From Nanobdellota archaeon (lineage in GTDB: Archaea > Nanobdellota > Nanobdellia > Pacearchaeales > GW2011-AR1): a stretch of DNA of 64,000 nt. This document shows positions 46,682 through 63,140 of this stretch, piece after piece; position 1 is the first letter of the stretch; each line of letters opens with the position of its first letter. The stretch is taken from positions 24,765-88,764 of the forward strand of contig JAUWPB010000001.1 of the NCBI GenBank assembly GCA_030611805.1, in the 5' to 3' direction. The notes under the pieces are model-generated. The model saw nothing but the letters and a program-made list of their open reading frames with translations. It made no database searches and had not been told where the DNA came from. The translations under genes were made by a program, and so were the position numbers.

Positions 46682-46682
46682 A

Positions 46683-48175: not shown

Positions 48176-48293
48176 AAGCAAATCATAGATTTTCATTCAT
48201 CCAAACACAAAGAAAGGTGTTACAGAGAAAGGGATCATTCCCTATAGGGGCGTCAGCATCTTTGATGCAAGTAAATATCGGGGGTTATTTTTA

Positions 48294-48530
48294 ATGAAAC
48301 CAATAGTAACTGAAAAAGCTGTTATGATGATTGAAGCACAGAATATTTTGACATTTGAAACAGGAAAAGATAAAACAAAAACTGAAATAAAAAAAGAAAT
48401 TGAAGAATTGTTTGACGTGAAAGTTGAAAAAGTGAGGAGTTTGATTAGAAGAAATAAAAAATGTGTTTATGTTAAATTAAATAAAAAATTTCCAGCTATT
48501 GATGTGGCGACGAAGCTGGGGTTAATGTAA
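48294..48530 (+). CDS. rpl23: Ribosomal protein L23
   Basis: Size, position before rpl2, sequence pattern. Confidence 0.8.
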   Translation: MKPIVTEKAVMMIEAQNILTFETGKDKTKTEIKKEIEELFDVKVEKVRSLIRRNKKCVYVKLNKKFPAIDVATKLGLM

Positions 48531-48531
48531 A

Positions 48532-49230
48532 ATGGGAAAAAGAATAATTCAACAGCGAAGAGGAAGGGGAACTCACACTTATAAAGTTCGGAGAAAGGCA
48601 TTTAGATTCAAGCTTCAGTATCCACCAAGACTTTCCGGAGAAGGAAGTGTGATTAAACTTTTTAATTCAGCAGGACATAGTGCTCCTTTGGCAAAAATAA
48701 AATATAGTGACGGAACTTTTTTTGTGCCTGCGTTTAAAGGCATGGTTGAAGGACAGAAAATAAGTTTTGAAGATGCAAAAATAAATAAAGGAAATATTAT
48801 GAAATTGAAAGACATTCCAGTAAAAACTAAAATTTATAATATTGAATCAAGACCAGGGGATGGGGGGATGTTCATAAAGAGTGCTGGAAATTCTGCAGTT
48901 ATTAATAAAATTATTGGGAAAGATGTTTTTGTTTTAATGCCCTCAAAAAAAGAAAAAAAGTTTAATCAAAATTGCCGGGCAATTATTGGCATAGCTGCTG
49001 GAGCAGGCAGACTTGATAAACCTGTTATTAAAGCCGGGAAAAAGCATCATATTAAAAAGTCAAAAAGTAAATTATGGCCAAGGACATCTGCAGTAAAGAT
49101 GAATGTAATAGACCATCCTTTTGGTTCAGGAAGGGCGAAGAATGTGAAGAGCAAAATTGCCAAGAGAAATGCGCCTCCTGGAAGAAAAGTTGGATTAATA
49201 AGGCCTAGAAGAACAGGTAAAAAGAAATAA
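48532..49230 (+). CDS. rpl2: Ribosomal protein L2
   Basis: RRGRGTHTYKVRRK...GAGRLDKPVIKAG. Confidence 0.9.
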   Translation: MGKRIIQQRRGRGTHTYKVRRKAFRFKLQYPPRLSGEGSVIKLFNSAGHSAPLAKIKYSDGTFFVPAFKGMVEGQKISFEDAKINKGNIMKLKDIPVKTKIYNIESRPGDGGMFIKSAGNSAVINKIIGKDVFVLMPSKKEKKFNQNCRAIIGIAAGAGRLDKPVIKAGKKHHIKKSKSKLWPRTSAVKMNVIDHPFGSGRAKNVKSKIAKRNAPPGRKVGLIRPRRTGKKK

Positions 49231-49231
49231 A

Positions 49232-49627
49232 ATGGAAATACAAAAAAAACAATTTGCATACAAAGGCAAGGCAATTGAAGAATTAAAATCTTTAGATGTA
49301 AGAGAATTTGCAAAGTTAGTCAGGTCAAGGCAGAGAAGAACTATTTTGAGGAATTTCCAAAAGGTTGAGGATTTTATTAATCGGAGCAAGATAAAAATTG
49401 AAAGAAAAAAACCAATAAAAACTCATCAAAGAGATTTGGTTGTTGTTCCGGAGATGGTTGGATGGAAAATATTCATTTATAATGGAAATAAATTTGTTCC
49501 TGTGGAAGTTACAGGAGAAATGCTTGGACATAAATTTGGAGAGTTTGCCCCGACAAGAGCAAGGGTAAAGCATGGAAAAACCGGGGTAGGTGCAACTAAA
49601 GGAACTAAACACAAGGCTAAAAAATGA
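49232..49627 (+). CDS. rps19: Ribosomal protein S19
   Basis: NGNKFVPVEVTGEMLGHKFGEFAPTR. Confidence 0.9.
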   Translation: MEIQKKQFAYKGKAIEELKSLDVREFAKLVRSRQRRTILRNFQKVEDFINRSKIKIERKKPIKTHQRDLVVVPEMVGWKIFIYNGNKFVPVEVTGEMLGHKFGEFAPTRARVKHGKTGVGATKGTKHKAKK

Positions 49628-49968
49628 TAACTAATAAAATAACTGGGAAAAAATATGAAAAAGGTATTGGATTTTGTAGAGAAGAAAATATGCCAACTGC
49701 CCAAGAGATTATTTCCTGCTCTCCTTCTAAAATAACCACAATTCATTTTGGTGGTCAAAACATAACATATGAAGAATTAATTGAAAAAAATATTCTTCCT
49801 TATTTTGAAAAAGAAGCGATTAATTCTTGCGTTGTTTTTCCTCTTCAAACACCTTTTCCTATATGTGAACCCGCATCAACACAAGAATTAGAGATTATCA
49901 AAAGGAATCTCTCAAATAAAGGATTAGATGTTTTACTATATGATAAAACATTTGCAATTAGATTATAA
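49624..49968 (+). CDS. Hypothetical Cys-rich protein intercalated between rps19 and rpl22
   Basis: ORF track; overlaps rps19 stop. Confidence 0.4.
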   Translation: MITNKITGKKYEKGIGFCREENMPTAQEIISCSPSKITTIHFGGQNITYEELIEKNILPYFEKEAINSCVVFPLQTPFPICEPASTQELEIIKRNLSNKGLDVLLYDKTFAIRL

Positions 49969-49969
49969 A

Positions 49970-50728
49970 ATGGGAATTAATACAGAAAAACCAATGACAA
50001 AACAAGAATCAAAAAAACAAGGAGTAGTTGGTGCTATAAAACAAAAAATTGATTTGGCTAAAGTACCTGTTGAAAAGAAAACAGATGAAAAAAAAGATAA
50101 GCAATTAACTACTGGGAAAGTCTCTGAACCAAAAGATGAAGTAAAACCTGATTATAAAAACTTGGCACCCAAGGGTGTACACCACCGAGTAGGTCCAGAG
50201 GAAGGAGGTGCGAGTACCTCTTCGCCAAGTAGGTCTGAAAGAAGCCCTTCTGTAAAAGAAGATATAAACATAGAGGACAAAAAAAAGAAACCAATACAAA
50301 AAAAACCTGTTGTTAAAAAAACCGAGGCTGTTGTAAATGCAAGGAGTCTTCCAATCTCAACAAAATATTCTATGGCGATTTGCAGATTTATTAAAAACAA
50401 GAAAATTGGGAAAGCAATAGTTGATTTAGGACAAGTTATTACGAAGAAAAAAGCAGTACCAATGAAAGGCGAGATTCCTCATAAAAAAGGCAGAGGAATG
50501 ATGTCAGGAAGATATCCTAAAAAAGCTTCAGAGCATTTTATTGAAATATTGAAAAGCCTGCAAGCAAACGCTAATGCTAATGAAATAGAGAATCCGAGAA
50601 TTGTTGAAGCTGTTGCAAATCTTGCCTCAAGACCTTATGGGAGATTTGGAAGAATAAGGAAAAAGCGAACTCATGTTAAGTTAGTTGCTAAAAATAAATT
50701 AAATAAAGAAAAGGAGAATAGAAAATGA
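49970..50728 (+). CDS. rpl22: Ribosomal protein L22 with ~120-aa low-complexity N-terminal extension
   Basis: C-terminal ARSLPISTKYSMAICRFIKNKKIGKAIVDL...; start chosen at MGINTEK (track start 49928 overlaps upstream gene). Confidence 0.8.
   Translation: MGINTEKPMTKQESKKQGVVGAIKQKIDLAKVPVEKKTDEKKDKQLTTGKVSEPKDEVKPDYKNLAPKGVHHRVGPEEGGASTSSPSRSERSPSVKEDINIEDKKKKPIQKKPVVKKTEAVVNARSLPISTKYSMAICRFIKNKKIGKAIVDLGQVITKKKAVPMKGEIPHKKGRGMMSGRYPKKASEHFIEILKSLQANANANEIENPRIVEAVANLASRPYGRFGRIRKKRTHVKLVAKNKLNKEKENRK
50165..50180 (+). repeat. GC-rich 16-nt element GCACCCAAGGGTGTAC inside rpl22 (copy 1)
   Basis: Identical 16-mer at 51656..51671 inside rps3; both translate to APKGV. Confidence 0.7.
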
Positions 50729-51027
50729 GTTTAATTAATGTTAAAACAAAAATATATTGTAATTTTAAAATTGATGGGTATGTTGCTTGCTTAGAATATA
50801 CTGCCAATGAATCTCAAAAAGAAATTGGATTATTGGTTCCAAAAGAATTAAGGAGAAAAGACCAAGCTACTTCAAATGCTCTTAAATATTTATTCACTCA
50901 AAAAAAAGAAAGTCCTTTTATTGTAAATATAGGGGAACTAGAAGAAATTCTTTCTCCAAATTTTGTAGAAGATATTAAAAAATCAAATTTACCTAAAAAA
51001 ATTAAACAAAATATTCAAGGAATTTAA
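50725..51027 (+). CDS. Hypothetical protein intercalated between rpl22 and rps3
   Basis: ORF track; overlapping stops/starts. Confidence 0.4.
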   Translation: MSLINVKTKIYCNFKIDGYVACLEYTANESQKEIGLLVPKELRRKDQATSNALKYLFTQKKESPFIVNIGELEEILSPNFVEDIKKSNLPKKIKQNIQGI

Positions 51028-51028
51028 T

Positions 51029-51751
51029 ATGGAAGAGAAAAAAACAGTTCAGTTTAAGAAAGAAGAATTTGCGATTAAGGAATCTATAAAAAATGCACTT
51101 GGAAAGGGAAAAGTGAGCAAGGTTATTATAGAGTATACGCCGGTGGGAGAAAAAATAATTATCTCTACTCATAAGCCAGGGTTGGTAATTGGAAGAAAGG
51201 GTGTGAAAATCGGGGAACTAACTCAAATGTTAAGAACTGAATTTAAACTTGAAAATCCTCATATTGAAATAGATGAAATAATGCAACCAGAACTTGACGC
51301 CCAGATAATGGCAGATGAAATTGCTCTTTCGTTGGAAAGATTCGGGCCTTTGAGGTTTAAGGTTACTGCATACAGAACATTGCAAAAAATAATCAAGGCA
51401 GGGGCTTTGGGAGTTGAAATAAGATTAAATGGGAAACTTCCGAGTGCAAGAGCAAGGTCGTGGAGATTTGCACAAGGATATTTAAAGAAAACAGGGGACA
51501 GTGCAAAGGTTGTTGACAGGGCGCAATCAAGAGCACAGACAAAACCAGGAACTGTGGGAGTGAAAGTGAGTATCTTGTCTCCAGATGTTGAATTAAAAGA
51601 TAGAATCAAGATTGACGACGAACTTATAAAAAAATTAAAGGAAAATTCAGAAGTTGCACCCAAGGGTGTACCCCCAAGTACTGGATTAGGGGGCAAAGAA
51701 AAACCAAAAACCAAAAAAGTAATTAAAAAAGTAAAGAAGGATAAAAATTAA
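51029..51751 (+). CDS. rps3: Ribosomal protein S3
   Basis: KH domain IIISTHKPGLVIGRKGVKIGEL. Confidence 0.9.
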   Translation: MEEKKTVQFKKEEFAIKESIKNALGKGKVSKVIIEYTPVGEKIIISTHKPGLVIGRKGVKIGELTQMLRTEFKLENPHIEIDEIMQPELDAQIMADEIALSLERFGPLRFKVTAYRTLQKIIKAGALGVEIRLNGKLPSARARSWRFAQGYLKKTGDSAKVVDRAQSRAQTKPGTVGVKVSILSPDVELKDRIKIDDELIKKLKENSEVAPKGVPPSTGLGGKEKPKTKKVIKKVKKDKN

Positions 51752-51752
51752 A

Positions 51753-51962
51753 ATGGCAACTTTAAAATTCAAAGACATACAAAAATTAAGCAAACAAGAA
51801 AGAGAAAAGAAATTTAAGGAATTGAAAATGGAATTGATTAAATCAAAAGTTAAATCCTCAAAAACAGGGAGTTCAAAGATTAAGGAAATTAAAAAAATAA
51901 TTGCCAGAATACTCACGCTCAAAAAACACAATGGAAATATGTCCAAAATGTGGCTTGCCTGA
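51753..51962 (+). CDS. rpl29: Ribosomal protein L29
   Basis: MATLKFKDIQKLSKQEREKKFKELKMELIK. Confidence 0.8.
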   Translation: MATLKFKDIQKLSKQEREKKFKELKMELIKSKVKSSKTGSSKIKEIKKIIARILTLKKHNGNMSKMWLA

Positions 51963-52230
51963 GCAAGCATGTGTATGTGAACAGATTGTTAAAAGTTCGC
52001 AAAGAGTAAAGATAACGACAGACAGAAAGCGATATGGGAAAATCGTGACTGTTGTTACAGGATTCGAGAGTGGAATCAATGTGAAGAAAATCGCAAAGGC
52101 TCTGAAAAACGAGTTGGCCTGCGGTGGGACTTACAAGGGTAACATGATTGAACTCCAAGGAGACCACAGAAAGAAGATAAAAGAACTGCTGGTCAAGTTG
52201 GGGTTTGAGGAAGAATCAATCTCTGAATAA
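51901..52230 (+). CDS. eif1: Translation initiation factor aIF1 (SUI1)
   Basis: CPKCGLPEQACVCEQ...RKRYGKIVTVVTGFE...ELQGDHRKKIKELL; likely start at internal MEICPK (51931). Confidence 0.8.
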   Translation: MPEYSRSKNTMEICPKCGLPEQACVCEQIVKSSQRVKITTDRKRYGKIVTVVTGFESGINVKKIAKALKNELACGGTYKGNMIELQGDHRKKIKELLVKLGFEEESISE

Positions 52231-52260
52231 ACAAAAAGCATACACAAACAAAAAAATAAA

Positions 52261-52623
52261 ATGGAAAAAAAGAAAACAACAGAAGGAAAAATAGAGAAAA
52301 AATCAGAAGTAGTTGGAAATGTCTGCGATGACAGAAATTGCCATATCCATGGGAACTTAAAAACCAGAGGAAGAGTCTTTGAAGGAGAAGTTATCAGAAA
52401 GTTCCATAAGAGAATTACAATTGAATTTGAAAGAATGACTTATGTAAGAAAATATGAAAGATATAAAAAATCAAAAACAAAAATTCATGCACGGCTTCCT
52501 GTTTGTATGGAAGATGAAATCCATATTGGTGATTTAATAAAAGTGCAGGAATGCAGACCTTTGAGCAAGATAATTCATTTTGTGGTTATTGAGAAAATTA
52601 AATCAGGAGAAAATGGGAAATGA
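52261..52623 (+). CDS. rps17: Ribosomal protein S17
   Basis: Size/position and OB-fold pattern. Confidence 0.85.
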   Translation: MEKKKTTEGKIEKKSEVVGNVCDDRNCHIHGNLKTRGRVFEGEVIRKFHKRITIEFERMTYVRKYERYKKSKTKIHARLPVCMEDEIHIGDLIKVQECRPLSKIIHFVVIEKIKSGENGK

Positions 52624-53021
52624 AAGCAATATCAGCAAGAGCAACAAGAGGATTGAATTTGGGTGCAAAGATGATTGCGTCTGATAATAGCGGAGCAAAG
52701 ATTGTGAGATTGGTTTCAGTAAAAAGAGGGAAAGGGAGAAAGGGGAAGCAAGGATGTGCTAAGATTGCTGACTGGGTAAAGGTAAGTGTTAGAAAAGGTA
52801 TTCCTGACATGAAAGGGAAAGTTTTTGATGCTGTTTTAATAAGGCAAAAAAAATCTTACAGAAGATTAAACGGAGAGAGAATTGCTTTTGAAGATAATGC
52901 TGTGGCAATTTTAAAAGATGATAAAGGAAATCCAAAAGCAACTCAAATTAAAGGACCAATTGCAAGGGAGGTATTAGAGCGATGGCCGAGTGTGGCAAAA
53001 ATCGCTAGTATTGTTGTTTAA
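52620..53021 (+). CDS. rpl14: Ribosomal protein L14
   Basis: MKAISARATRGLNLGAKMIASDNSGAKIVRLVSV. Confidence 0.9.
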   Translation: MKAISARATRGLNLGAKMIASDNSGAKIVRLVSVKRGKGRKGKQGCAKIADWVKVSVRKGIPDMKGKVFDAVLIRQKKSYRRLNGERIAFEDNAVAILKDDKGNPKATQIKGPIAREVLERWPSVAKIASIVV

Positions 53022-53022
53022 A

Positions 53023-53514
53023 ATGAAAAAAGAATTTAGTAAACACTGGAAATCAAGCAAACAACCTCGGAAGCAGAGGAAATACAGAGCTAAAGCTCCG
53101 TTGCATATTAAAAGAAAATTTGTGGGAATTAATTTGTCAAAAGAATTGAGAAAGAAATATGGAAAGAGAAATATGGTTGTAAAAAAAGGCGATGTTGTGA
53201 AAGTTATGAGGGGCAAATTTAAAGGCAAGCAGGGGAAAATCACAGAAGTAAAATTAAAGATTTCAAAAGTCGCAATAGAAGGAATTCAGGTTAAGAAGAT
53301 GGATGGTTCAAAAGTTAATGTGAGGTTGCAACCTTCAAATTTGCAAATTATTGAATTAAATTTAGAAGATGGAAAAAGAATGAAGAAAGAAAGAAAAACA
53401 ACAGAAAAAAAAGAAGATAAAATAAAAGTTGAAGATAAAAAGATTGAAAAGGAAAAAATGCAAACACCTAAAAAGATAGATTCAAAGAAATTAAATAAGG
53501 AGAAGAAAAAATGA
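53023..53514 (+). CDS. rpl24: Ribosomal protein L24 with K/E-rich C-terminal extension
   Basis: KOW motif VKKGDVVKVMRGKFKGKQGKITEV; start at MKKEFSK right after rpl14 stop. Confidence 0.85.
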   Translation: MKKEFSKHWKSSKQPRKQRKYRAKAPLHIKRKFVGINLSKELRKKYGKRNMVVKKGDVVKVMRGKFKGKQGKITEVKLKISKVAIEGIQVKKMDGSKVNVRLQPSNLQIIELNLEDGKRMKKERKTTEKKEDKIKVEDKKIEKEKMQTPKKIDSKKLNKEKKK

Positions 53515-53777
53515 GAATAGAAGATAAAACAAGGGATTATTTAAAACCCATATTGGATGGAAATAAATATGTAGAAACAGGAATGCTACTAATGATCCCC
53601 CAAATAGGAGAAGTTGCCATAACATCCCAATTGAAAAAGGGATTCAATGGGCATGATTGCCAGAGGGAATATTTCACATTCAAAAAAGATTTGATTTGGG
53701 GAAAAGTAACGAGGATCAACGGAAAATATTTTATAAAAACCACTAAGGGAGGCAACAATTTAAAATGGCACACTTAA
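53511..53777 (+). CDS. Hypothetical protein intercalated between rpl24 and rps4e
   Basis: ORF track; overlapping junctions. Confidence 0.4.
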   Translation: MRIEDKTRDYLKPILDGNKYVETGMLLMIPQIGEVAITSQLKKGFNGHDCQREYFTFKKDLIWGKVTRINGKYFIKTTKGGNNLKWHT

Positions 53778-54415
53778 AACGACACAAAGTTCCAAAGAGT
53801 TGGCCAATACCTCGGAAAGGCACAACATATGTAGTCAGACCTAACTTCAATATAAATAAAGGTATTCCGGTTTTAATTATTTTAAGAGATATTTTAAAAG
53901 TCGCCCAAATCAGAAAAGAAGTGAAAAAAGCAATTCACGCAAAACATATTTTGCTCAACAACAAGGTAGTCAGGGACGAAAAAAATAATGCTCTTTTGTT
54001 TGATACAATAGAAATTATTCCTTCTAAAAAATATTATAGAATTAATTTGTCTAATAAAGGAAAATTCAAAGTTCAGGAAATAAAACAATCTGAAGTGGAT
54101 AAAAAAATATCAAAAGTTATTGATAAAAAAACTTTGAAAGGTAAAAAAACACAGTTAAATTTAAGTGATGGAAGAAATTTTCTGTCAGATATTAAATGCA
54201 AGGTTAATGATTCTGTTTTAATTGATTTTAAAAAAAGTAAAATAGAAAAATGTCTACCGTTAAAAGAAGGGGCAAAGGTAATGGTCTTTGCAGGGAAACA
54301 TTCCGGGGAAACAGGGATTATTAGAAATATAAAACCCCAAAGAAAAATGGCGGGATTAAATATTGGCGAAAAAGAACTCAATGTTTTAATTAAACAATTA
54401 ATGGTGGTTGAATAA
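53765..54415 (+). CDS. rps4e: Ribosomal protein S4e
   Basis: MAHLKRHKVPKSWPIPRKGTTYVVRP. Confidence 0.9.
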   Translation: MAHLKRHKVPKSWPIPRKGTTYVVRPNFNINKGIPVLIILRDILKVAQIRKEVKKAIHAKHILLNNKVVRDEKNNALLFDTIEIIPSKKYYRINLSNKGKFKVQEIKQSEVDKKISKVIDKKTLKGKKTQLNLSDGRNFLSDIKCKVNDSVLIDFKKSKIEKCLPLKEGAKVMVFAGKHSGETGIIRNIKPQRKMAGLNIGEKELNVLIKQLMVVE

Positions 54416-54870
54416 TGGAAAAAGGAACAATTGAAGAAAAAGTATTAAATGAAATGAACAGGGCATTTAAAGAACATTCTCATTATAGCATTGAAAAAAA
54501 TGGAGAACTCAGTATTTTTGGTCCAGAAAAAATATCTCCTGAAGAATTTTATCAGCGAAAAAGAGATATGCAATTAAGTAAACCTTTGGAAGAAATTTCA
54601 GAGAGAGATGTAATAATTAGTGAACACAAAGGAAACCAACAGAAAGAATATGTTATACAAAAAGGAGAGGAAACTAATTTAATAAAAGCTTGTATTGATA
54701 CTCTTGCAAAAGAAAAAAACAAATTAAATGAAGATTGCATTGCCTTAAAAACATATTTTATTGTTAAAGGGGGAAAAGAAATAATTTGTGATACTCTTCT
54801 GTCATTTCCTAAAGAGGATTTTCAATATCAGCATATTTATAAAAAGTTAAAGGGATGTGGAGCAATATAA
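54415..54870 (+). CDS. Hypothetical protein intercalated between rps4e and rpl5
   Basis: ORF track; ATG overlaps rps4e stop. Confidence 0.4.
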   Translation: MEKGTIEEKVLNEMNRAFKEHSHYSIEKNGELSIFGPEKISPEEFYQRKRDMQLSKPLEEISERDVIISEHKGNQQKEYVIQKGEETNLIKACIDTLAKEKNKLNEDCIALKTYFIVKGGKEIICDTLLSFPKEDFQYQHIYKKLKGCGAI

Positions 54871-54872
54871 AA

Positions 54873-55376
54873 ATGTCTAAAGAAAATATAATGCGTGAAA
54901 TAAAAATTGAAAAGGTTGTTTTAAGTACAGGCGGGACTGGAGAGGATTTGGAAAAAGGAGTTAAGCTTCTTAAAATTCTTACTGGGAAAAAACCTGCAAA
55001 AATGAAGTCCAAGAAAAGGATTCCTTCCTGGAGTGTTCGACCAAATTTAGAAGTTGGCACAGTTGTGACTATTAGAAAAAATCCGGAAGAACTTTTGAAA
55101 AGAATGTTAATCACAATAGATAATGTTCTAAAGAAAAAACAAATAAGTGAAAATAATTTTTCTTTTGGTATAAAAGAATATATAGAAATTCCCGGAGTAG
55201 AATATCAAAGAGATATTGGGATAATGGGCTTTGATGTTACAGTTGTTTTTAAAAGGACCGGGAGAAGGGTTAAGTTAAGGAAAATAAAAAAAGGAAAAAT
55301 CCCAAAAAAACATATGATTAGCAAAGATGAAATAATTAAATTCATGGAAGAAAAATTCCAGACGAGGTTTGAATAA
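54873..55376 (+). CDS. rpl5: Ribosomal protein L5
   Basis: Typical uL5 sequence; start at MSKENIM after upstream stop. Confidence 0.85.
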   Translation: MSKENIMREIKIEKVVLSTGGTGEDLEKGVKLLKILTGKKPAKMKSKKRIPSWSVRPNLEVGTVVTIRKNPEELLKRMLITIDNVLKKKQISENNFSFGIKEYIEIPGVEYQRDIGIMGFDVTVVFKRTGRRVKLRKIKKGKIPKKHMISKDEIIKFMEEKFQTRFE

Positions 55377-55606
55377 TGACAGCAAGTGATTGGAGAAAAA
55401 TATTAAAACAACTTGAAAATAAGCCACAATTAAAGGCAAAGTTTTTGAAACACTGCAAGCCAAAAGAGAGAAAGATTGGAATCGCTGTAAAGAAATGCGA
55501 GAGGTGTGGAAGATTCGGGGCTCACATAAAATCATACGGATTAAATTTATGCCGACACTGCTTTAGGGGAATCGCAGAAGAAATCGGATTTCAAAAATAT
55601 AGTTAA
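55376..55606 (+). CDS. rps14: Ribosomal protein S14 (zinc-binding type, S29e-like)
   Basis: CERCGRFGAHIKSYGLNLCRHCFR. Confidence 0.85.
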   Translation: MTASDWRKILKQLENKPQLKAKFLKHCKPKERKIGIAVKKCERCGRFGAHIKSYGLNLCRHCFRGIAEEIGFQKYS

Positions 55607-55607
55607 A

Positions 55608-55772
55608 ATGGAAAATGAAATTTTGTACACAGGAGATTGCCCAAATCCAGGGGATTTTGAGAAAGTTCAGGAAAACTTAGCAAGGCTTATTAAAATGCAA
55701 GACGAATTTTATGAACAGAAAAAGAAACAACCTCTTCAACCAATTAAATATTATGAAAGGGGTTTAAACTAA
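55608..55772 (+). CDS. Small hypothetical ORF (54 aa) between rps14 and rps8
   Basis: Hand-translated MENEILYTGDCPNPGDFEKVQENLARLIKMQDEFYEQKKKQPLQPIKYYERGLN; 1-nt spacers on both sides. Confidence 0.35.
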   Translation: MENEILYTGDCPNPGDFEKVQENLARLIKMQDEFYEQKKKQPLQPIKYYERGLN

Positions 55773-55773
55773 A

Positions 55774-56025
55774 ATGGAAATAACAAATATGGATAAAAAA
55801 TTACAACAAGAATATCAGAGAGCATATACAGAAGATCTTAGAAGATGTCTTTTATTTACAAGAACGCGTGTTCCTATAGAAGAAGTTAGTACAGACACAA
55901 TGAAAGCTAATATACAATGTGCAAGAGAATCTTATGAAAAAATACCTGATAAACAAGCAGTTTCACTTTTATTAGGGGATTTAAATCAACTTGAAAGAAA
56001 ATATGGTGCGGAGGCTACAAAATGA
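55774..56025 (+). CDS. Hypothetical protein between rps14 and rps8
   Basis: ORF track; stop overlaps rps8 start. Confidence 0.4.
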   Translation: MEITNMDKKLQQEYQRAYTEDLRRCLLFTRTRVPIEEVSTDTMKANIQCARESYEKIPDKQAVSLLLGDLNQLERKYGAEATK

Positions 56026-56402
56026 GTCAAGACATAGTTGCTGATGCTTTGAATATGATAAGAAATGCCAAGAAAGCGAGAAAAGAAATTGTAAAGATAA
56101 ATCGGATTTCAAATTTGTTGATTGAGATTTTAAAGATAATGAAACAAGAAGGTGCAATAAAGAAATATAAAATTAACAGCAAGGAAAAATATGTTGAGAT
56201 TACAATCGGCGAGTTGTCAGAATGCAAGGCGATAAAACCGCGGTTTAGTGTTGATAAAACCCAGATTGAAAAATACCGAAGAAGATATCTGCCTGCGAGA
56301 AATTTAGGGACTATGATTATTTCAACTAACAAAGGTTTGACAACTCATGAAGAAACTCAAAAAGAACAAACAGGGGGATGCTTGATTGCATATTTTTATT
56401 AA
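56022..56402 (+). CDS. rps8: Ribosomal protein S8
   Basis: MSQDIVADALNMIRNAKKARKEIV. Confidence 0.9.
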   Translation: MSQDIVADALNMIRNAKKARKEIVKINRISNLLIEILKIMKQEGAIKKYKINSKEKYVEITIGELSECKAIKPRFSVDKTQIEKYRRRYLPARNLGTMIISTNKGLTTHEETQKEQTGGCLIAYFY

Positions 56403-56403
56403 A

Positions 56404-56754
56404 ATGGAACAAACAATACACCCTCACGAAATGATGGCAGACTTTGTAAATAAATATGAATCCCGAATAAAACCTGTGCTTCAAAAAGGAAAAAATATTA
56501 ATGATTTGATTGGCTTAATATTTGAACAAGATTTAAGATATAAAGAAATGGGAAGTTTAACAATTCAACCAAACCCAAAAGCTCAGGCTCATTATCGTCT
56601 CGCGATTAATTTTCTTGGACAATTAACAATGAAAACGCTGACTCAAGATCTTTTTAAATTTGGAATTGAAAGGGTAGAAGCACAAGTTAAAAAGTTAAAC
56701 ACAATATTGCATGAAGATTCACATTATAAATTATATCGAGAGGAATCAAGATGA
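56404..56754 (+). CDS. Hypothetical protein intercalated between rps8 and rpl6
   Basis: ORF track (start moved to MEQTIHP after rps8 stop). Confidence 0.4.
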   Translation: MEQTIHPHEMMADFVNKYESRIKPVLQKGKNINDLIGLIFEQDLRYKEMGSLTIQPNPKAQAHYRLAINFLGQLTMKTLTQDLFKFGIERVEAQVKKLNTILHEDSHYKLYREESR

Positions 56755-57293
56755 AAAAAGAATTATTTCAAACAATTGAAATTCCAGAAGGAGTGGAAGC
56801 AAGTATAGACTGGGGTAGTGTAACTGTGAAAGGTAAAGAAGGGGAAAATAAAAGAACATTTAATCTTGGGAAATTAGATTTTGAGAAAAAAGAAAACAAA
56901 ATAATTATTGGAAATAAAAAGGCAACAAAAACTGAAAAGAAAATGATGAACACAATTGCGTCTCATATAAATAATATGATTAAAGGTGTGCAGGAAAAAT
57001 TTGAATACAAATTGAAAGTATGTTTTAGCCATTTTCCTATGAATGTTAAAATAGAAGGCAATGAAGCGGTAATAAAGAATTTTTTAGGAGAAAAAATCCC
57101 AAGAAAAGTGAGAATTCCTGAAGGCACTGAAGTTGTAATTGATAAGGATATTATCACTGTCAAATCTACTGATAAAGAATTAGGGGGACAGGCTGCAGCA
57201 AATTTTGAAACAGCTACGAGAATTATTGGCAAAGACAGAAGGGTTTTCCAGGACGGGATTTATATTACAAGTAAATGTGGGAGGGAAATTTAA
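56751..57293 (+). CDS. rpl6: Ribosomal protein L6
   Basis: Two-domain uL6 pattern. Confidence 0.85.
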   Translation: MKKELFQTIEIPEGVEASIDWGSVTVKGKEGENKRTFNLGKLDFEKKENKIIIGNKKATKTEKKMMNTIASHINNMIKGVQEKFEYKLKVCFSHFPMNVKIEGNEAVIKNFLGEKIPRKVRIPEGTEVVIDKDIITVKSTDKELGGQAAANFETATRIIGKDRRVFQDGIYITSKCGREI

Positions 57294-57294
57294 A

Positions 57295-57729
57295 ATGGTT
57301 AAATTTTTAAGAAGAAGCTGGGACAGATATTCAAAACTTGGAAAAGGAAGAAAGAAAAAACAGGTTTGGAGAAAGCCAAGAGGCAGAGATAATAAAATGA
57401 GAGAAAAAAGAAAAGGATATCCTGTAGTAGTGAGCATAGGATATAAAAAACCTGGAAAGAAGATTGATGAGAAAAAATTAATTATTATGAATGTTAGAGA
57501 TTTGAACAAAGTTAAAGAAAATAAAATTGTAATAATTGGGAAAGTTGGAACAAAGAAAAAAATAGAAATAGTTAAAAAAGCAAATGAAAAGAAAATTAAA
57601 ATTCATAATTTAAATGTTAAAAAATTTTTGAAGGAGTTAGAGAAGAAAGAAAAGAAAACAAAGGAGAAAGAAAACAAAAAACCAGAAAAGAAACCTGATA
57701 AAACTAAAAGCAAGGAGGAGAAAAAATGA
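57295..57729 (+). CDS. rpl32e: Ribosomal protein L32e with K-rich C-terminal extension
   Basis: MVKFLRRSWDRYSKLGKGRKKKQVWRKPRGRDNKMR; track start 57205 overlaps rpl6. Confidence 0.85.
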   Translation: MVKFLRRSWDRYSKLGKGRKKKQVWRKPRGRDNKMREKRKGYPVVVSIGYKKPGKKIDEKKLIIMNVRDLNKVKENKIVIIGKVGTKKKIEIVKKANEKKIKIHNLNVKKFLKELEKKEKKTKEKENKKPEKKPDKTKSKEEKK

Positions 57730-58133
57730 ACCTACGCAAGAAAAAAGAATTAGCTGTAAGGACTTTAAAAGTTGGAAAAGAAAGAATTGTTTTTTTGCAG
57801 TCAAGGTTAGAGGAAATAAAAGAAGCAATTACTAAACAAGATATTCGGGACTTGAAAAAAGAAGGAGGAATAATTGTAAAAGAAATTAAGGGAAGAAAAA
57901 AGATTAAGAAGGTGGGTAAAAAAAGAGGTCCTGGGAAAATAAGAAAAAAAGTTAATAAAAGAAAACAAGAATATGTTAAAATGACCAGAAAATTAAGGAA
58001 ATACACTGGTGAAATGAAAAAGCAAGGAAAATTATCTAAAGAAAATGTTGAAGATATTAAAAAGAAAATAAGAAACAGAATTTTTAGAAGCAAGGCACAT
58101 TTGAAAACTTATATTGGAGGATTGAAAAAATGA
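57726..58133 (+). CDS. rpl19e: Ribosomal protein L19e
   Basis: MNLRKKKELAVRTLKVGKERIVF. Confidence 0.85.
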   Translation: MNLRKKKELAVRTLKVGKERIVFLQSRLEEIKEAITKQDIRDLKKEGGIIVKEIKGRKKIKKVGKKRGPGKIRKKVNKRKQEYVKMTRKLRKYTGEMKKQGKLSKENVEDIKKKIRNRIFRSKAHLKTYIGGLKK

Positions 58134-58426
58134 AAATAGAAAATGAAATTAAATATATAGAAATCCGGAAAGACTGGGAAAAAGTAACCAGAGCTGATAA
58201 AGTGATTGCGAATGAGGGGCTTCAAGAAGGATTTTTCTTTGGAAAAAGATATCTCCCCCACTCTGGTACAAAGCTTATACAAAAAGAGTTCCCAATTTTA
58301 ATAAGAAGAGAAATAAATTCAATAATTGAGGATGTCGTTGGTGAAGCAATCATTGTCCATGATCAGGGAGTTTCAGGAGATTATGACAAATTAGATAAAT
58401 TTTTAAGAACGGAGTGTAATGCATAA
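58130..58426 (+). CDS. Hypothetical protein intercalated between rpl19e and rpl18
   Basis: ORF track; overlapping junction. Confidence 0.4.
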   Translation: MKIENEIKYIEIRKDWEKVTRADKVIANEGLQEGFFFGKRYLPHSGTKLIQKEFPILIRREINSIIEDVVGEAIIVHDQGVSGDYDKLDKFLRTECNA

Positions 58427-58428
58427 AA

Positions 58429-58923
58429 ATGAAAACATTAAAACGAAGAAGAAAAGAATGTAAAACAGATTACGGAAAAAGGATTAAATTGCTGAAAAGC
58501 GGGAAGCCAAGAATTGTTTTTAGAAGAACAAACAAGTATGTTATTGCACAATATGTAACAAGCAAAGAAGCGCAGGATAAAGTTGAAATAGGAATTAGTT
58601 CAAAAAACTTGTCAAAATATGGATGGTCAAAAGAATTTTCAGGGAGTTTAAAATCAACATCAGCATCATATCTTACAGGATTATTAATGGGTAAAAAAAT
58701 TATAAAACAAAAATTAAAAACCCCGATTGTTGATTTTGGGATGGCCAGAATATTGCATAAAACAAGGGTTTATGGTTTTTTGAAAGGATTAATCGACGCG
58801 GGAATTGATATAAAATGTAAAAAAGAAGCTTTTCCAGGTGAAGATAGAATAAAAGGAAAACACATGAAAAAAGATTTTTCAAAAATATTTGAAGAAATTA
58901 AATCTAAAATAGAAAAAGAATAA
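58429..58923 (+). CDS. rpl18: Ribosomal protein L18
   Basis: GKPRIVFRRTNKYVIAQYV. Confidence 0.85.
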   Translation: MKTLKRRRKECKTDYGKRIKLLKSGKPRIVFRRTNKYVIAQYVTSKEAQDKVEIGISSKNLSKYGWSKEFSGSLKSTSASYLTGLLMGKKIIKQKLKTPIVDFGMARILHKTRVYGFLKGLIDAGIDIKCKKEAFPGEDRIKGKHMKKDFSKIFEEIKSKIEKE

Positions 58924-59756
58924 TGGAAGAAAAAATAAATACAAGTTCGGGAAAAGATGAATATGCAGAAAAACCTGAAGAAGTTTTAGAAGAATCAGAA
59001 TTAAAAGAACTTGAAGAAATGAAAAAAGAAGTTGAAAAAAAGGTAAATGGAACAGATAAAGAAAGTTATAGGAATATGAGCCGGGCTGAAAGAGAGAAAA
59101 AAGCTCAGCAAGATGCAATATCTTCCTGGGAACCGAAAACAAAACTTGGGCAAGAAGTAAAAGATGGAAAAATAAAAAGTATTGATGAGATTTTAGACAG
59201 CAAAAGAAAAATTCTTGAAGCAGAAATTGTTGATTCGTTGATTGAGGTTAAATCTGAATTGAGCTCTATTGGTCAGTCAAAAGGAAAGTTTGGAGGCGGA
59301 AAAAGAAGAGCATGGAGACAAACGCAAAGAAAAACAAAAGAAGGAAATGTCCCAAGTTTTTCAACGCTTGCTATTGTTGGTGATGAAAATGGACATATTG
59401 GAATTGGCTCTGGAAAAGCTAAAGAAACTTTGCCAGCGAGAGACAAGGCCATAAGAAAAGCTAAATTAAATCTCATGAAAATAAAAAGAGCTTGTGCAGG
59501 ATTTGATTGCTCTTGTTCAGAATTACATTCAATCCCATTTAAAATAACCGGAAAATGCGGTAGTGTTAAAGTAACTTTAATCCCTGCACCACAAGGGACA
59601 GGGTTAGTTGTTGGAAGAGAATTAAGAAAGATATTAAAACTTGCAGGAATTAAAGATGTTTATAGCAGAACCTCGGGGAGAAAAAGGACTACTTTTAATT
59701 TAGTTAAATCTTGTATTGATGCTTTGAAGAAAACAAATGTGGAGGCAGAAAAATGA
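58923..59756 (+). CDS. rps5: Ribosomal protein S5 with acidic N-terminal extension
   Basis: GGGKRRAWRQTQRKTKEGNVPSFSTLAIVGDENGHIGIGSGKAKE. Confidence 0.9.
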   Translation: MEEKINTSSGKDEYAEKPEEVLEESELKELEEMKKEVEKKVNGTDKESYRNMSRAEREKKAQQDAISSWEPKTKLGQEVKDGKIKSIDEILDSKRKILEAEIVDSLIEVKSELSSIGQSKGKFGGGKRRAWRQTQRKTKEGNVPSFSTLAIVGDENGHIGIGSGKAKETLPARDKAIRKAKLNLMKIKRACAGFDCSCSELHSIPFKITGKCGSVKVTLIPAPQGTGLVVGRELRKILKLAGIKDVYSRTSGRKRTTFNLVKSCIDALKKTNVEAEK

Positions 59757-60046
59757 CAAGCATAGTTAAGTTAAAAGATGGAAGTAATTTAGTAACAGGA
59801 TTAGTATATATTCTAAAGGGAGAGAATAAACAAGTGGAAGCAATTTTCACAGATTGTAATAAAAAGAATCTTGAATTTTTAGAAAAGTCTCCACAAGGTT
59901 TTGTAAAATATTTAGTAAAAGAAAATTCAATAGAAATGGTCAATTCAAGAATAGGTGTTGGATACAGACGTCTAAAAGTGAAGGATAATTTAAAGGGGCA
60001 AAAAATACCTAAAGAACTAATAAAAAATTTGGAGGATTTTAAATGA
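59753..60046 (+). CDS. Hypothetical protein intercalated between rps5 and rpl30
   Basis: ORF track; overlapping junctions. Confidence 0.4.
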   Translation: MTSIVKLKDGSNLVTGLVYILKGENKQVEAIFTDCNKKNLEFLEKSPQGFVKYLVKENSIEMVNSRIGVGYRRLKVKDNLKGQKIPKELIKNLEDFK

Positions 60047-60468
60047 TAGCAATAATCAGAATTCATGGAATGGTGAAAATAAAAAAAAGACTAGAGGAAA
60101 CTTTGCAAAGATTGAGATTGAAGAGGAAGTATAGTTGTGTTGTTTTAGTTAAACCTAAGAAAGAGCAATTAGGGATGATAAAAAATATTAAGAATTTTGT
60201 GGCTTTTGGAGAAATTAACAAAGAAACTTTTGAGAAGTTAATTGAACAGCGTGGACAATTAATAAATAAGAAAAAGAAAATTAATTTTAAAGAAGTTGTT
60301 AAAGAATTAGAAAAAGGAAAGAAATATGAGGAATTAAACTTAAAACCATTTTTTAGATTGCATCCTCCTCGTAAAGGGATTGATAGTAAAAAACATTTTG
60401 GTGTTAGAAAAGGAGTCTTAGGAAATAACAAGGAAAAAATAAATGAATTAATTGGGAGGATGTTGTGA
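60043..60468 (+). CDS. rpl30: Ribosomal protein L30
   Basis: MIAIIRIHGMVKIKKRLEETLQRLRLKRK; C-terminus ...LIGRML. Confidence 0.85.
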   Translation: MIAIIRIHGMVKIKKRLEETLQRLRLKRKYSCVVLVKPKKEQLGMIKNIKNFVAFGEINKETFEKLIEQRGQLINKKKKINFKEVVKELEKGKKYEELNLKPFFRLHPPRKGIDSKKHFGVRKGVLGNNKEKINELIGRML

Positions 60469-60473
60469 GATGG
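60451..60473 (+). repeat. Repeated junction cassette GGGAGGATGTTGTGA-n-ATGG (copy 1; encodes G-R-M-L-stop + SD + ATG)
   Basis: Near-identical copies at 60682..60703 and 60969..60987. Confidence 0.7.
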
Positions 60474-60697
60474 TAGAAAAAAAATTAATAATAAAAGGAT
60501 TAGAATACTATACATCACATAGAGGTGGAACTGTTGTGGATACAGAAAATAGAAAAACAAGAACGATAGTTAAACAAGTTTATGACACAAGTTTTTTTGG
60601 AATAAGAAAAGTTTTAAGAGAATCAAAAATCATTACAGAGATAAGAGATAACGCAGAATATTCTGTTTATAATCAATTAATGGGGAGGATGTTGTGA
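60470..60697 (+). CDS. Hypothetical small protein 1 of 3 between rpl30 and rpl15 (C-terminus ...MGRML)
   Basis: ATG 1 nt after rpl30 TGA; track used upstream TTG. Confidence 0.4.
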   Translation: MVEKKLIIKGLEYYTSHRGGTVVDTENRKTRTIVKQVYDTSFFGIRKVLRESKIITEIRDNAEYSVYNQLMGRML

Positions 60698-60698
60698 A

Positions 60699-60983
60699 AT
60701 GGGAAAGGTTGAATTAAACAAAATGCAAGATTATAAAGTTGAATTATATCCTGGACAAGTTATATTGGAAGGGAAATACCTGAATCAATTAGAAGATACA
60801 CATGTTTTTGAACATGAAAAAAAAGGAGAAAAACATTACATATTAGTAGAAGGCCACTGGATGATTAAAGAAGAAGATATTATAACTCACAAAAATATTT
60901 CTTCTTTTCCAATCAAAGTTATTCCTGAAAAAAAGGCTTATCTGGTTAAAGGTTTACAGAAATTAATAGGGGGAATGTTGTAA
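60699..60983 (+). CDS. Hypothetical small protein 2 of 3 (C-terminus ...LIGGML)
   Basis: ORF track. Confidence 0.4.
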   Translation: MGKVELNKMQDYKVELYPGQVILEGKYLNQLEDTHVFEHEKKGEKHYILVEGHWMIKEEDIITHKNISSFPIKVIPEKKAYLVKGLQKLIGGML

Positions 60984-61198
60984 TGGGAAAAATAACTTAT
61001 CAAACAATAGTTGGAGGAGAAAAAATAGCAATTTTTAGAGAAGGAGGAATTGTAGAAATTGGGCATAAAGAAAAACTAACAGGAGAATGTAAGTTAGATA
61101 CATACCACAAAATTGCCGGAGGATACAAAAAGGTTCTTACTCAAACAGCTGAAGAAGGGAGTGTTTTGTATAGAGAATTAATGAGGATTTCAAAATGA
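60983..61198 (+). CDS. Hypothetical small protein 3 of 3
   Basis: ORF track; taATG overlap. Confidence 0.4.
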   Translation: MGKITYQTIVGGEKIAIFREGGIVEIGHKEKLTGECKLDTYHKIAGGYKKVLTQTAEEGSVLYRELMRISK

Positions 61199-61698
61199 TA
61201 AAAACACACAAACGAACAAAATCATCAAAAATGCATGGAAGAGGTAGAGGGACTCATGGTTATGGAGAAAGAAAGAAACATAAAAAATCAGGGCATAAAG
61301 GTGGAAAAGGAATGTCTGGAAGCGGGAAGAGAGCAGACCATAAAAAAACTCTTGTGTTAAAAAAATATGGACATAAGTATTTTGGAAAACAGGGAATAAC
61401 AAGCAGGGGAACAAAAAGAGATATTAGAAAAAGAATTAATCTTCAACAAATTGAATTAAATCTTGAAAAGTATGGGCAGAAAAAAAATGATGTGTGGGAA
61501 ATTAATTTAAAAAATTATAAAATTCTTGGAACTGGCGAGGTTAAAAATAAATTAATTATAAATGCTAAAGAAGCTTCTAAATCAGCGATTGAGAAAGTGA
61601 AAAAAGCTGGGGGCGAAATAATAATTAAGAAAGGGCACACAAAGGTTGAAAAAGTTAAAGATAATGCTAAAGAGGAGAAAGAGGTTATTAAAAAATAA
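61195..61698 (+). CDS. rpl15: Ribosomal protein L15
   Basis: KMHGRGRGTHGYGERKKHKKSGHKGGKG. Confidence 0.85.
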   Translation: MIKTHKRTKSSKMHGRGRGTHGYGERKKHKKSGHKGGKGMSGSGKRADHKKTLVLKKYGHKYFGKQGITSRGTKRDIRKRINLQQIELNLEKYGQKKNDVWEINLKNYKILGTGEVKNKLIINAKEASKSAIEKVKKAGGEIIIKKGHTKVEKVKDNAKEEKEVIKK

Positions 61699-61700
61699 TC

Positions 61701-63140
61701 ATGGACTTAAGAAAAATATTTGATTTTATCCCGGAAGTTAGAAAACCAGATGAGAAAAAACTCGGCTTTAATGTAAAATTAAAATGGACTTTGATTATTT
61801 TAGTTTCGTTTTTTGTCCTTGCTAATATTTCTCTTTTTGGTTTGTCGCATAATGCTCTTGAGAGATTTGAGTATCTGGCTATAATCCTTGGAACAGATTT
61901 TGGGAGTATTATTTCATTGGGTATCGGACCAATTGTAATGGCATCTATTATTTTGCAGTTGCTTACTGGCTCAGGGATATTAAATATTGATACTGCAACT
62001 GTGGAAGGGAAGCGGTTTTTTGGCGGGCTGCAAAAATTATTGGTTTTCTTTTTTATAGTTTTTGAGGCAATGGTTTATGTTTTAATGCAGGGGCTTCAGG
62101 CAATGCCGGGACTTGCCCCATTACTTATTTTTCAGTTAATACTCGGGGGTCTGGCAATTTTTTACATGAGTGAAGTCTGCGAAAAATGGGGCTTTGGCTC
62201 TGGTGTTAGTTTGTTTATAGGAGCAGGTGTTAGCTGGAGAATATTCACAAGTGCTCTTCAATTTGTAAACCAACAAGGACGGAATTGTTTACTTGATTTT
62301 AAAGGAACACCATGTTCTGGGAAAATTTTAGTTATGATTCAATCAATAATAAATAAATATCCAATAGAATTTGTATCTGCACTTGGAGCAATTTTAGCGA
62401 CTATCCTAATTTTCTTAATAGTTGTCTGGGCACAATCATTAAAAGTTGAACTCCCTTTATCGTATGGAAGAATCAGAGGGTATGGTGTTAAATGGCCTTT
62501 GTCTTTTTTTTATGCTTCTGTTATCCCGGTAATTTTGTGTGCTGCTTTAGTTGCCAATATCCAGCTCTTTGGAGGAATTATTGAAAATGCCGCAGCTCCG
62601 TGTTTTATAGAAGAAGGCGTCTGCACTGGCATGGCAAAATTTGCTTCACACCTGGGTTTTTTAGGGCATTTTGTTGAGGGGCAGCCGATTTCTGGTTTAG
62701 CCTTTTGGATGGGTTCAACTAATCTCTTAGAATTATTTATCAGAGGAGGATTTATGTTTAGGTATTTATTGCAAGGTTTCACACATATTTTATTTTTTGT
62801 ATTTTTCTGTACAATCTTCTCTATATTCTGGGTTAAAACTTCGGGCATGGATTCAAAAGCACAGGCACATAAGATTGTTTCATCTGGATTGCAGGTAGCT
62901 GGATTCAGACAAGATGAAAGAATTTTGGAGAGCATTCTTGACAGGTATATTATGCCGTTGACAGTTATGGGCGGAGCAGCAATAGGATTGCTCGCTGCAT
63001 CCACTGATTTGCTTGGGGCATTGGTTTCAGGAACAGCGATATTATTAGTAATCATGATTATGTTCCAGTTTTATCAAAACATTGCGCAACAACACCAGAT
63101 GGATATGGCTCCTGCGATGAAGAAATTTATGCAAGGATAA
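61701..63140 (+). CDS. secY: Preprotein translocase subunit SecY
   Basis: 10-TM protein, position after rpl15. Confidence 0.9.
   Translation: MDLRKIFDFIPEVRKPDEKKLGFNVKLKWTLIILVSFFVLANISLFGLSHNALERFEYLAIILGTDFGSIISLGIGPIVMASIILQLLTGSGILNIDTATVEGKRFFGGLQKLLVFFFIVFEAMVYVLMQGLQAMPGLAPLLIFQLILGGLAIFYMSEVCEKWGFGSGVSLFIGAGVSWRIFTSALQFVNQQGRNCLLDFKGTPCSGKILVMIQSIINKYPIEFVSALGAILATILIFLIVVWAQSLKVELPLSYGRIRGYGVKWPLSFFYASVIPVILCAALVANIQLFGGIIENAAAPCFIEEGVCTGMAKFASHLGFLGHFVEGQPISGLAFWMGSTNLLELFIRGGFMFRYLLQGFTHILFFVFFCTIFSIFWVKTSGMDSKAQAHKIVSSGLQVAGFRQDERILESILDRYIMPLTVMGGAAIGLLAASTDLLGALVSGTAILLVIMIMFQFYQNIAQQHQMDMAPAMKKFMQG

Follow-up and report, generated by a model that had tools for sequence, protein, structure and literature searches.

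Candidate re-use of the L30-L15 junction by small orphan genes within a ribosomal-protein operon of DPANN archaea

Ribosomal-protein operons are regarded as the most stable prokaryotic gene clusters and are used as phylogenetic anchors for uncultured lineages. Some integrative elements target the 3′ end of a conserved gene, classically a tRNA-gene att site, and carry a replacement copy of it, while free-standing selfish genes, such as phage homing-endonuclease genes, lodge between conserved essential genes by 'intronless homing'. Here, we analyzed a 64-kb window (the whole stretch of DNA studied; ~30% G+C) from a Nanobdellota archaeon, in which the gap between rpl30 and rpl15 is filled by three closely packed small open reading frames (ORFs), ORF1-ORF2-ORF3, separated by similar junction sequences. 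The gap lies in the archaeal ribosomal-protein supercluster (L3...L30, L15, SecY; + strand, 45408-63140), and the flanks of the array are ribosomal-protein genes, SecY and an EMC3/YidC-like gene. In T4-type phages, PeSL mobile regulatory cassettes place short conserved expression signals beside ORFans, and recombination between the copies inserts, deletes or replaces modules between relatives (Arbiol et al. 2010, PMC2839356; PMC4122927). In archaea, stop/start overlaps (ATGA/TGATG) couple translation by termination-reinitiation (Huber et al. 2019, PMC6728339). Our literature searches turned up no account of ORFs inserted into the ribosomal operons of DPANN archaea.

With slightly better than even confidence, we read the copies of the L30 junction as portable modules that keep the inserted cistrons and L15 coupled and that provide short homologies through which cassettes are joined and shuffled. 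The array comprises the following features (SD, Shine-Dalgarno sequence; related loci carry L numbers):

60043..60468, + strand: rpl30 (uL30), 141 aa, ending ..KINELIGRML*; PF00327, E=4.7e-7
60442..60473, + strand: junction copy 1, the original, AATGAATTAATTGGGAGGATGTTGTGAGATGG; last 9 L30 codons with embedded GGAGG SD, TGA stop, 1 nt, ATG of ORF1
60470..60697, + strand: ORF1, 75-aa orphan; its family-wide C-terminus YNQLM(E/G/R)(E/G/R)ML* mimics the L30 tail
60671..60702, + strand: junction copy 2, AATCAATTAATGGGGAGGATGTTGTGAAATGG; ORF1 tail, TGA, 1 nt, ATG of ORF2
60699..60983, + strand: ORF2, 94 aa; small beta-rich protein from a 76-cluster family (LYP..HVF..HW..GIITH..SS)
60960..60986, + strand: junction copy 3, a hybrid; ORF2's own ..CAGAAATTAATAG joined to GGGGAATGTTGTAATGG; TAATG stop/start overlap with ORF3
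60983..61198, + strand: ORF3, 71-aa orphan; homologues in L003 (73% identity) and L092 (65%; 77 aa)
61175..61205, + strand: junction copy 4, degenerate, GAATTAATGAGGATTTCAAAATGATAAAAAC (61175-61198: GAATTAATGAGGATTTCAAAATGA); ATGA stop/start overlap of ORF3 and L15
61195..61698, + strand: rpl15 (uL15), the downstream essential gene, whose coupling has to be kept, 167 aa; PF00828, E=9e-13

The array was recovered in three independent assemblies at 99.9-100% identity and is therefore not an assembly artefact.

The arrangement works like an integron array or PeSL shuffling but lacks what defines either of them, namely IntI and attC in the one case and a promoter-terminator stem-loop in the other. 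It shares with integrons an insertion point that is fixed and has a strong promoter upstream, a variable set of small, mostly orphan ORFs without promoters of their own, a repeat at the cassette 3′ ends, and horizontal exchange. Unlike in an integron, no IntI-type recombinase turned up among the 20 mid-size window ORFs scanned and no attC hairpin was present; the repeat consists of coding sequence with SD, stop and start rather than a folded recombination site; and the array is located inside an essential archaeal ribosomal-protein operon, at a site where most inserts carry no repeat. The resemblance to PeSL lies in the breakpoints, at AATTAAT...ATG, and in the varying cassette content. PeSL elements, however, are transcriptional (an early promoter plus a terminator stem-loop), lie in phage hyperplastic regions and involve mini-circle intermediates, whereas the element described here is a putative translational-coupling junction within a cellular operon, also provides the C-terminal end of the upstream protein, and has no stem-loop. 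As with elements that target 3′ ends, the target end is duplicated, the target remains intact and the copy lies at the far end of the insert; in contrast to them, a protein-coding ribosomal gene is targeted, inserts measure 215-330 bp and bring no integrase, and translation of the duplicated end gives the inserted ORF its C-terminus, with the next gene presumably taking its SD from that same end. As in intronless homing, small and patchily distributed genes are wedged exactly between core genes and are younger than their flanks, but ORF1-3 have no nuclease or other recognisable domain and nothing indicates cleavage and repair. With termination-reinitiation the junctions share an intragenic SD in the last upstream codons and closely spaced stop and start codons, from which coupling is predicted here; the published work (PMC6728339) concerns the mechanism of coupling, not its duplication and re-use as a gene-insertion module. 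Insertion of a transposon or insertion sequence with target-site duplication was rejected, as the units have no terminal inverted repeats and encode only one orphan of 71-94 aa, and the duplicated segment is ~25-30 nt long with variable extent.

The first-pass annotation of the window had noted three strings of about 20 nt, at 60451, 60682 and 60969, that would give the upstream proteins a common G(R/G)ML C-terminus and supply the start signals of the next gene. The strings are present, L30, ORF1 and ORF2 end in GRML*, GRML* and GGML*, respectively, and the repeat supplies SD, stop and ATG for each next cistron. Copies 1 and 2, at the L30/ORF1 and ORF1/ORF2 junctions, share the ~30-nt consensus AAT(G/C)AATTAAT(T/G)GGGAGGATGTTGTGA(G/A)ATGG, and a repeat search extended the match to 47 nt at 79% identity (60442-60488 vs 60671-60717). 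The exact 14-mer GGAGGATGTTGTGA occurs in the window only at 60455 and 60684; the third site (60970) has three mismatches to it, as do four unrelated sites in the window. When the window was compared with itself by blastn, the tail of ORF1 matched that of L30 at E=1.7e-6 and the tail of ORF2 did so at E=0.003. Among 666 pairs formed by the 37 gene-end junctions of the operon (mean identity 15.3/36, sd 2.8), the L30/ORF1 pair scored highest, with 29 of 36 positions identical, and the L30/ORF2 pair, with 23/36, was level with the best generic pairs. The similarity of copies 1 and 2 far exceeds generic SD-ATG context, a limit that the annotation had set for its own proposal; copy 3 is borderline by itself and can be considered established only through comparison with relatives. 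Copy 4 was recognised by alignment to the uninterrupted L30/L15 junction of L013 (GAATTAATGGAGAGGATGTTATAAGATGATTAAAAC). We also scored tails against the L30 tail, for which the maximum over 1596 control windows was 14. Mimicry was significant for the ORF1 family (26/20/17/14) and for ORF2 of the window (16), and the ORF3 tail in copy 4 scored 11, which is not significant by itself.

Relatives anchored on SecY (75-90% identity) were all DPANN metagenome-assembled genomes labelled Pacearchaeota, Woesearchaeota or Nanoarchaeota. The L30 tail IN(E/D/K)L(I/V)xRML* was kept in every one of the 69 related DPANN loci, its DNA was strongly conserved as well (..ATAAATGAATTAATTGAGAGGATGTTGTAAaATG), and in 67 of them the next ATG lay −4 to +2 nt from the L30 stop regardless of which gene followed. 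The arginine codon of RML was AGG in 61/69 loci, compared with 18% of arginine codons in the rest of L30, and this excess points to a nucleotide-level constraint consistent with an embedded SD. The four junctions of the array read TGAgATG, TGAaATG, TAATG and ATGA, with stop/start distances of −4 to +1 nt and a GGAGG or GGGGGA located 9-10 nt upstream; we infer from these features that the junctions couple translation and that the SD is used. The repeat is thus best described as the 3′ end of rpl30 together with the start codon of the next cistron, and not as a free-standing insertion cassette. Of the modular insertion-site cassette envisaged by the annotation, the re-use of the junction holds up; the repeat itself is a universally conserved L30 3′ end, and only ORF1 carries the tail family-wide. 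Rfam gave no match at E<=1 to a ribosomal-protein leader or other element in 58800-62000, the junctions folded no better than shuffled sequences as RNA or DNA (z −1.7 to +1.3; no stable hairpin or stem-loop), and no inverted repeats resembling attC or terminal inverted repeats were found at the cassette ends.

An insert of >150 nt was present at L30/L15 in 44 of 73 loci (60%), against 2-23% at ten other junctions, an occupancy that makes L30/L15 the main insertion hot spot of the operon. The 52 ORFs inserted there fall into 37 blastp families, mostly singletons. The small genes are variably present at this boundary among close relatives, whose seven architectures amount to a variable array of promoter-less cassettes at one site:

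Window: L30-ORF1-ORF2-ORF3-L15
L004: L30-ORF1-ORF2-L15
L086 and L087-90: L30-ORF2-L15
L003: L30-a109-ORF1-ORF3-L15
L001: L30-a109-b109-ORF1-ORF2-L15
L092, the closest relative of the window: L30-y120-ORF1-ORF3-L15
L091: y120-b109-ORF1-DUF523

The same slot holds a PF04463 protein (DUF523 / 2-thiouridine-desulfurase-like) in two distant loci (L010 4670-5083 and L063 4941-5357), and in L091 a PF04463 protein (975-1421) follows ORF1. L034, L049 and L059 have in common an insert of 39-67 nt (..ttcaaaaaattaaaaatttttagc..) directly after the L30 stop and before L15.

The breakpoints of the cassettes map to AATTAAT...ATG. In ORF1, the conserved block runs from about codon 4 through the tail and stop to the next ATG(G), whether ORF2, ORF3 or DUF523 comes next, so the L30-like tail (YNQLM-EE/EG/RE/GR-ML*) belongs to the ORF1 family as its integral 3′ end. 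Relatives have GGAGGAGATGTTG (EEML) with GAGGAG codons at this point, and in the window three clustered changes produce GGGAGG, identical to the L30 tail and to the L30/ORF2 junction type of L087. This change indicates a probable conversion or crossover between tail copies. ORF2 usually ends in ..CAGAAATTAATAGAAAATGATAAAAAC (..LIENDKN*), overlapping the L15 start, and in four relatives it runs on after AATTAATAG to AAAATGATAAAAAC, the L15 start. In the window, ORF2 switches right after AAATTAATAG to GGGGAATGTTGTAATGGGA, the tail and start that precede ORF3 in L003 and L092, and its GGML tail is found only in this genome, with ORF3 behind it. The switch point identifies copy 3 as a recombinant joint at the AATTAAT core. 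Other inserts carry independent junction duplications, such as the ORF1 start before b109.

Cassettes and flanks also differ in divergence. In some genome pairs the cassettes are 91-94% identical while the flanking L30 and L15 genes are only ~70-77% identical, with synonymous divergence (pS) of 0.08-0.36 in the cassettes versus 0.45-0.75 in the flanks. Between L001 and L087, ORF2 is 94% identical at the nucleotide level (pS 0.08), compared with 72.5% (pS 0.64) for L30 and 72.4% (pS 0.49) for L15. Between L001 and L003, ORF1 has a pS of 0.09 against 0.67 for L30 and 0.47 for L15, and a109 is 91% identical (pS 0.22); y120 is 94% identical between L091 and L092. Insert families without an L30-like tail (fam3, fam9/DUF523 and fam10) are as saturated as the flanks. 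The discordance implies horizontal exchange of these particular cassettes among diverged lineages and is direct evidence for it. The annotation had proposed that the small genes were inserted or duplicated at a reusable junction. Separate inserted units at a re-used junction agree with the differing subsets and orders in relatives, the divergence below that of the core flanks and the joints at the repeat; duplication does not, as ORF1-3 are paralogues neither of each other nor of L30.

ORF1-3 had no Pfam match. Their homologues are 48-99% identical overall (67-99% for ORF1), indels in the alignments are multiples of three, and the three frames contain no in-frame stops compared with 5-10 in the other frames, with a probability of no stop by composition of 5e-5 to 6e-4. 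The ORF1 frame is open in all genomes (0 in-frame stops vs 6-10 in other frames), and the ORF3 frame likewise stays open in each of them. Judged by this conservation, ORF1-3 are real frames, in line with the first-pass view that they are coding, although ORF1 and ORF3 (dN/dS 0.3-1.3) are weakly constrained at the protein level. The ORF2 family comprises 76 representative clusters and has the motif LYP..G.YLG..H(V/I)F..HW..G(I/V)I(T/S)(H/Y)..SS; for ORF2, a dN/dS of 0.24-0.44 against its more distant homologues shows purifying selection. Its AlphaFold2 model (pLDDT 79.5) consists of a beta-sheet and C-terminal helices, with no confident match in the PDB. Distant members of the family sit at other ribosomal-protein junctions, namely S5/L30, L23/L2 and 2 nt upstream of S17e, and one lies among orphan genes near a TrmB regulator:

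Distant ORF2-family members: L093 4001-4288; L097 4001-4318; L098 4001-4306; L095 2832-3134

The ORF2 family seems either to hop between ribosomal-protein junctions or to be functionally tied to them. Searches by blastn and tblastn for paralogues or a source of ORF1-3 elsewhere in the window matched the tail repeats only, and there were no confirmed matches in IMG/VR viral contigs (ORF1 and ORF2) or JGI metagenome contigs (ORF1).

In the reading we favour, the L30 3′ end with the next start codon would be the L30-L15 translational-coupling junction of these DPANN archaea, and the L30/L15 boundary would be where small orphan genes lacking promoters chiefly land in the operon. In the sub-lineage of the window, the inserted units carry junction copies: ORF1 ends in a copy of its own in every genome, ORF2 would have gained one in this genome on the placement of ORF3 behind it, and ORF3 would end in a decayed one. 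Through their SD and stop/start spacing the copies would keep each inserted cistron and L15 translationally coupled, and through the core AATTAAT...ATG they would offer short homologies for joining, inter-genome exchange and shuffling, giving rise to the variable array. The near-identity of copies 1 and 2 would then be a trace of such recombination or conversion. We infer this role in joining and exchange from the breakpoints and divergence, along with the mechanism and direction of events; the most likely process is general recombination at short homologies, with selection retaining the products in which coupling is intact, and with no dedicated integrase. A broader proposal, which we offer tentatively and would not yet bet on, is that Pacearchaeota-type DPANN archaea harbour an undescribed cassette system in which promoter-less orphans spread horizontally into ribosomal-protein stop/start junctions, above all L30/L15, with a copy of the L30 3′ end restoring coupling and providing a crossover point, integron-like but without integrase or attC.

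Several observations weigh against the favoured interpretation. Neither a recombination event nor an intermediate was observed, and telling gain from loss would require a resolved tree. At the joints only very short homology (7-15 nt) is available, and the L30 tails of donor and recipient differ at several positions directly beside the cassette start, so that classical homologous recombination is no obvious fit. In 35 of the 37 insert families at L30/L15 there is no L30-like tail and scores are no higher than controls, which means that insertion does not depend on the tail. Even at unrelated loci, members of the ORF2 family have C-termini similar to the L30 tail (..LNELGEEIQ*), and part of the AATTAAT similarity may be convergent or coincidental. 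Finally, the dN/dS values of ORF1 and ORF3 (about 0.6-1) make a protein-level function doubtful; the main reason for these frames staying open may be to let ribosomes through to the next coupling junction, rather than the protein.

Other explanations account for parts of this pattern. A recombinase encoded elsewhere might take the L30 tail as an attachment site, so that circular cassettes with a tail-like site integrate, regenerate the site and leave a distal copy. Such integron- or att-like integration would suit the fixed, re-used site, the promoter-less orphan cassettes that each end in a copy of the target, the sharp cassette edges at ATG and tail despite diverged flanks, the palindromic core of the L30 tail (AATTAATT) and the specificity of the hot spot for L30/L15. 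We nevertheless consider it unlikely: a Pfam scan of 20 mid-size window ORFs found no tyrosine or serine recombinase, and none was seen beside any array; the sole mobile-element gene found, an IS4-type DDE transposase (PF01609; 24881-26110, − strand), is 35 kb from the array and without link to it; cassette ends have neither attC-like inverted repeats nor stable hairpins; the tail copy is missing from most insert families at L30/L15; and the cassettes were not found on IMG/VR viral contigs. Purely intragenomic gene conversion, in which old, vertically inherited cassettes had their neighbouring junctions homogenised in this genome, would explain why relatives have EEML, EGML or REML at the end of ORF1 and this genome has GRML, as in the L30 tail 229 nt upstream, and between the window and L092 cassette divergence is indeed similar to that of the flanks. 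It leaves unexplained the differing cassette sets of relatives, the low cassette pS beside that of the flanks, and the presence of the ORF2 family at other ribosomal-protein junctions, and is quite improbable as a full account; conversion may still be the local cause of the identity between copies 1 and 2, as a part of our preferred explanation and not in place of it.

If each small gene had separately evolved a strong SD and a tight stop/start before a coupled cistron, likeness to the L30 tail would be a by-product of that selection, with neither common descent nor recombination behind it. GGAGG-N8-10-ATG with overlapping stop and start is the norm across the operon, the L30/ORF2 and ORF3 tails do not rise above generic pairs, and ORF2-family tails elsewhere end in ..LGE.I*, where TTAGGAGAA is SD-like. 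But the identity of copies 1 and 2 includes AATNAATTAAT and ATGTTGTGA, which have no SD role, the 35 other insert families score at control level under the same selection, at AATTAATAG the tail of ORF2 changes abruptly into what stands before ORF3 in other genomes, and three clustered substitutions give an L30-identical ORF1 tail in this genome only. For copies 1 and 2, convergence is largely refuted, and as an explanation of the whole we hold it to be very unlikely. Tandem duplication in situ, with ORF1-3 as decayed partial copies, whether of one another or of the 3′ half of rpl30, that kept only the selected tail, is scarcely credible. Partial L30 copies would fit the spacing of 215-290 nt, ORF1 and L30 share a weak FFGIRKVL / HFGVRKGVL likeness, and the 5′ end of L30 is genuinely duplicated in part in the S5/L30 gap of L001, L009 and L022; yet Smith-Waterman comparisons with shuffles gave z <=1.5 for all L30/ORF1/ORF2/ORF3 pairs, hhalign of each family against the L30 profile gave probabilities of 0.1-2.4%, ORF2 is part of a large, independent family with members elsewhere, at other loci, and the cassettes are younger than their flanks, not older.

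Far from being stable, in these reduced DPANN genomes the operon acts as a landing pad, with 60% of species-level genomes carrying lineage-specific orphans at one junction, and in one sub-lineage the inserts are recently exchanged cassettes joined by copies of the presumed coupling signal. If the proposed mechanism is right, accessory genes can ride along with the strongest expression unit of a minimal cell and leave essential stoichiometry undisturbed, and short translational signals can serve as recombination modules. It would also define a set of small proteins for testing, for example the ORF2 family that recurs at different ribosomal-protein junctions. A practical caveat is that contigs used for concatenated ribosomal-protein analyses of DPANN metagenome-assembled genomes include horizontally moving DNA.

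Duplicated junction ends were also seen away from this array. In L065 (4900-5400), from a distant lineage, a second copy of the L30 tail (TTGGAGGATGCTTTAAGATG) and of the L15 start (ATGAAAACAACAAAA) flank an unusually GC-rich piece of ~96 nt and a 107-aa ORF. Between S5 and L30, inserts of 76-130 nt in L001 (4827-4964), L009 and L022 open with duplicates of the L30 start (MRIAVIRIK / MKIAV..) and the S5 tail, and are junction-spanning partial duplications. The S5/L30 slot also holds ORFs with apparently unrelated bodies and similar tails (..KELIKNLEDFK* / ..KELKKYLGDFK*), which suggests that the body may have been replaced and the coupling tail retained:

S5/L30 slot ORFs: window 59753-60046 (97 aa); L004 3850-4176, L087 5253-5579 and L003 4919-5254 (108-111 aa)

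Elsewhere in the window, a Fic/DOC protein (3658-4626, − strand) has no link to the array. Within the operon, nine or more other small non-ribosomal ORFs (83-151 aa, all without Pfam match) sit between ribosomal-protein genes, mostly with stop and start codons that overlap:

Other small operon ORFs: 46346-46681, 49624-49968, 50725-51027, 53511-53777, 54415-54870, 55774-56025, 56386-56754, 58130-58426, 59753-60046

Their slots hold other ORFs in relatives, for instance a 175-aa NTPase_I-T between L19e and L18 in L003. A DEDD/RNase_T-type exonuclease of 217 aa (47522-48175, + strand; PF00929, E=1e-12) lies between rpl4 and rpl23 and overlaps the L4 stop, and rpl22 (49928-50728, + strand; 266 aa in total) has a low-complexity, K/E/P-rich N-terminal extension of ~120 aa.

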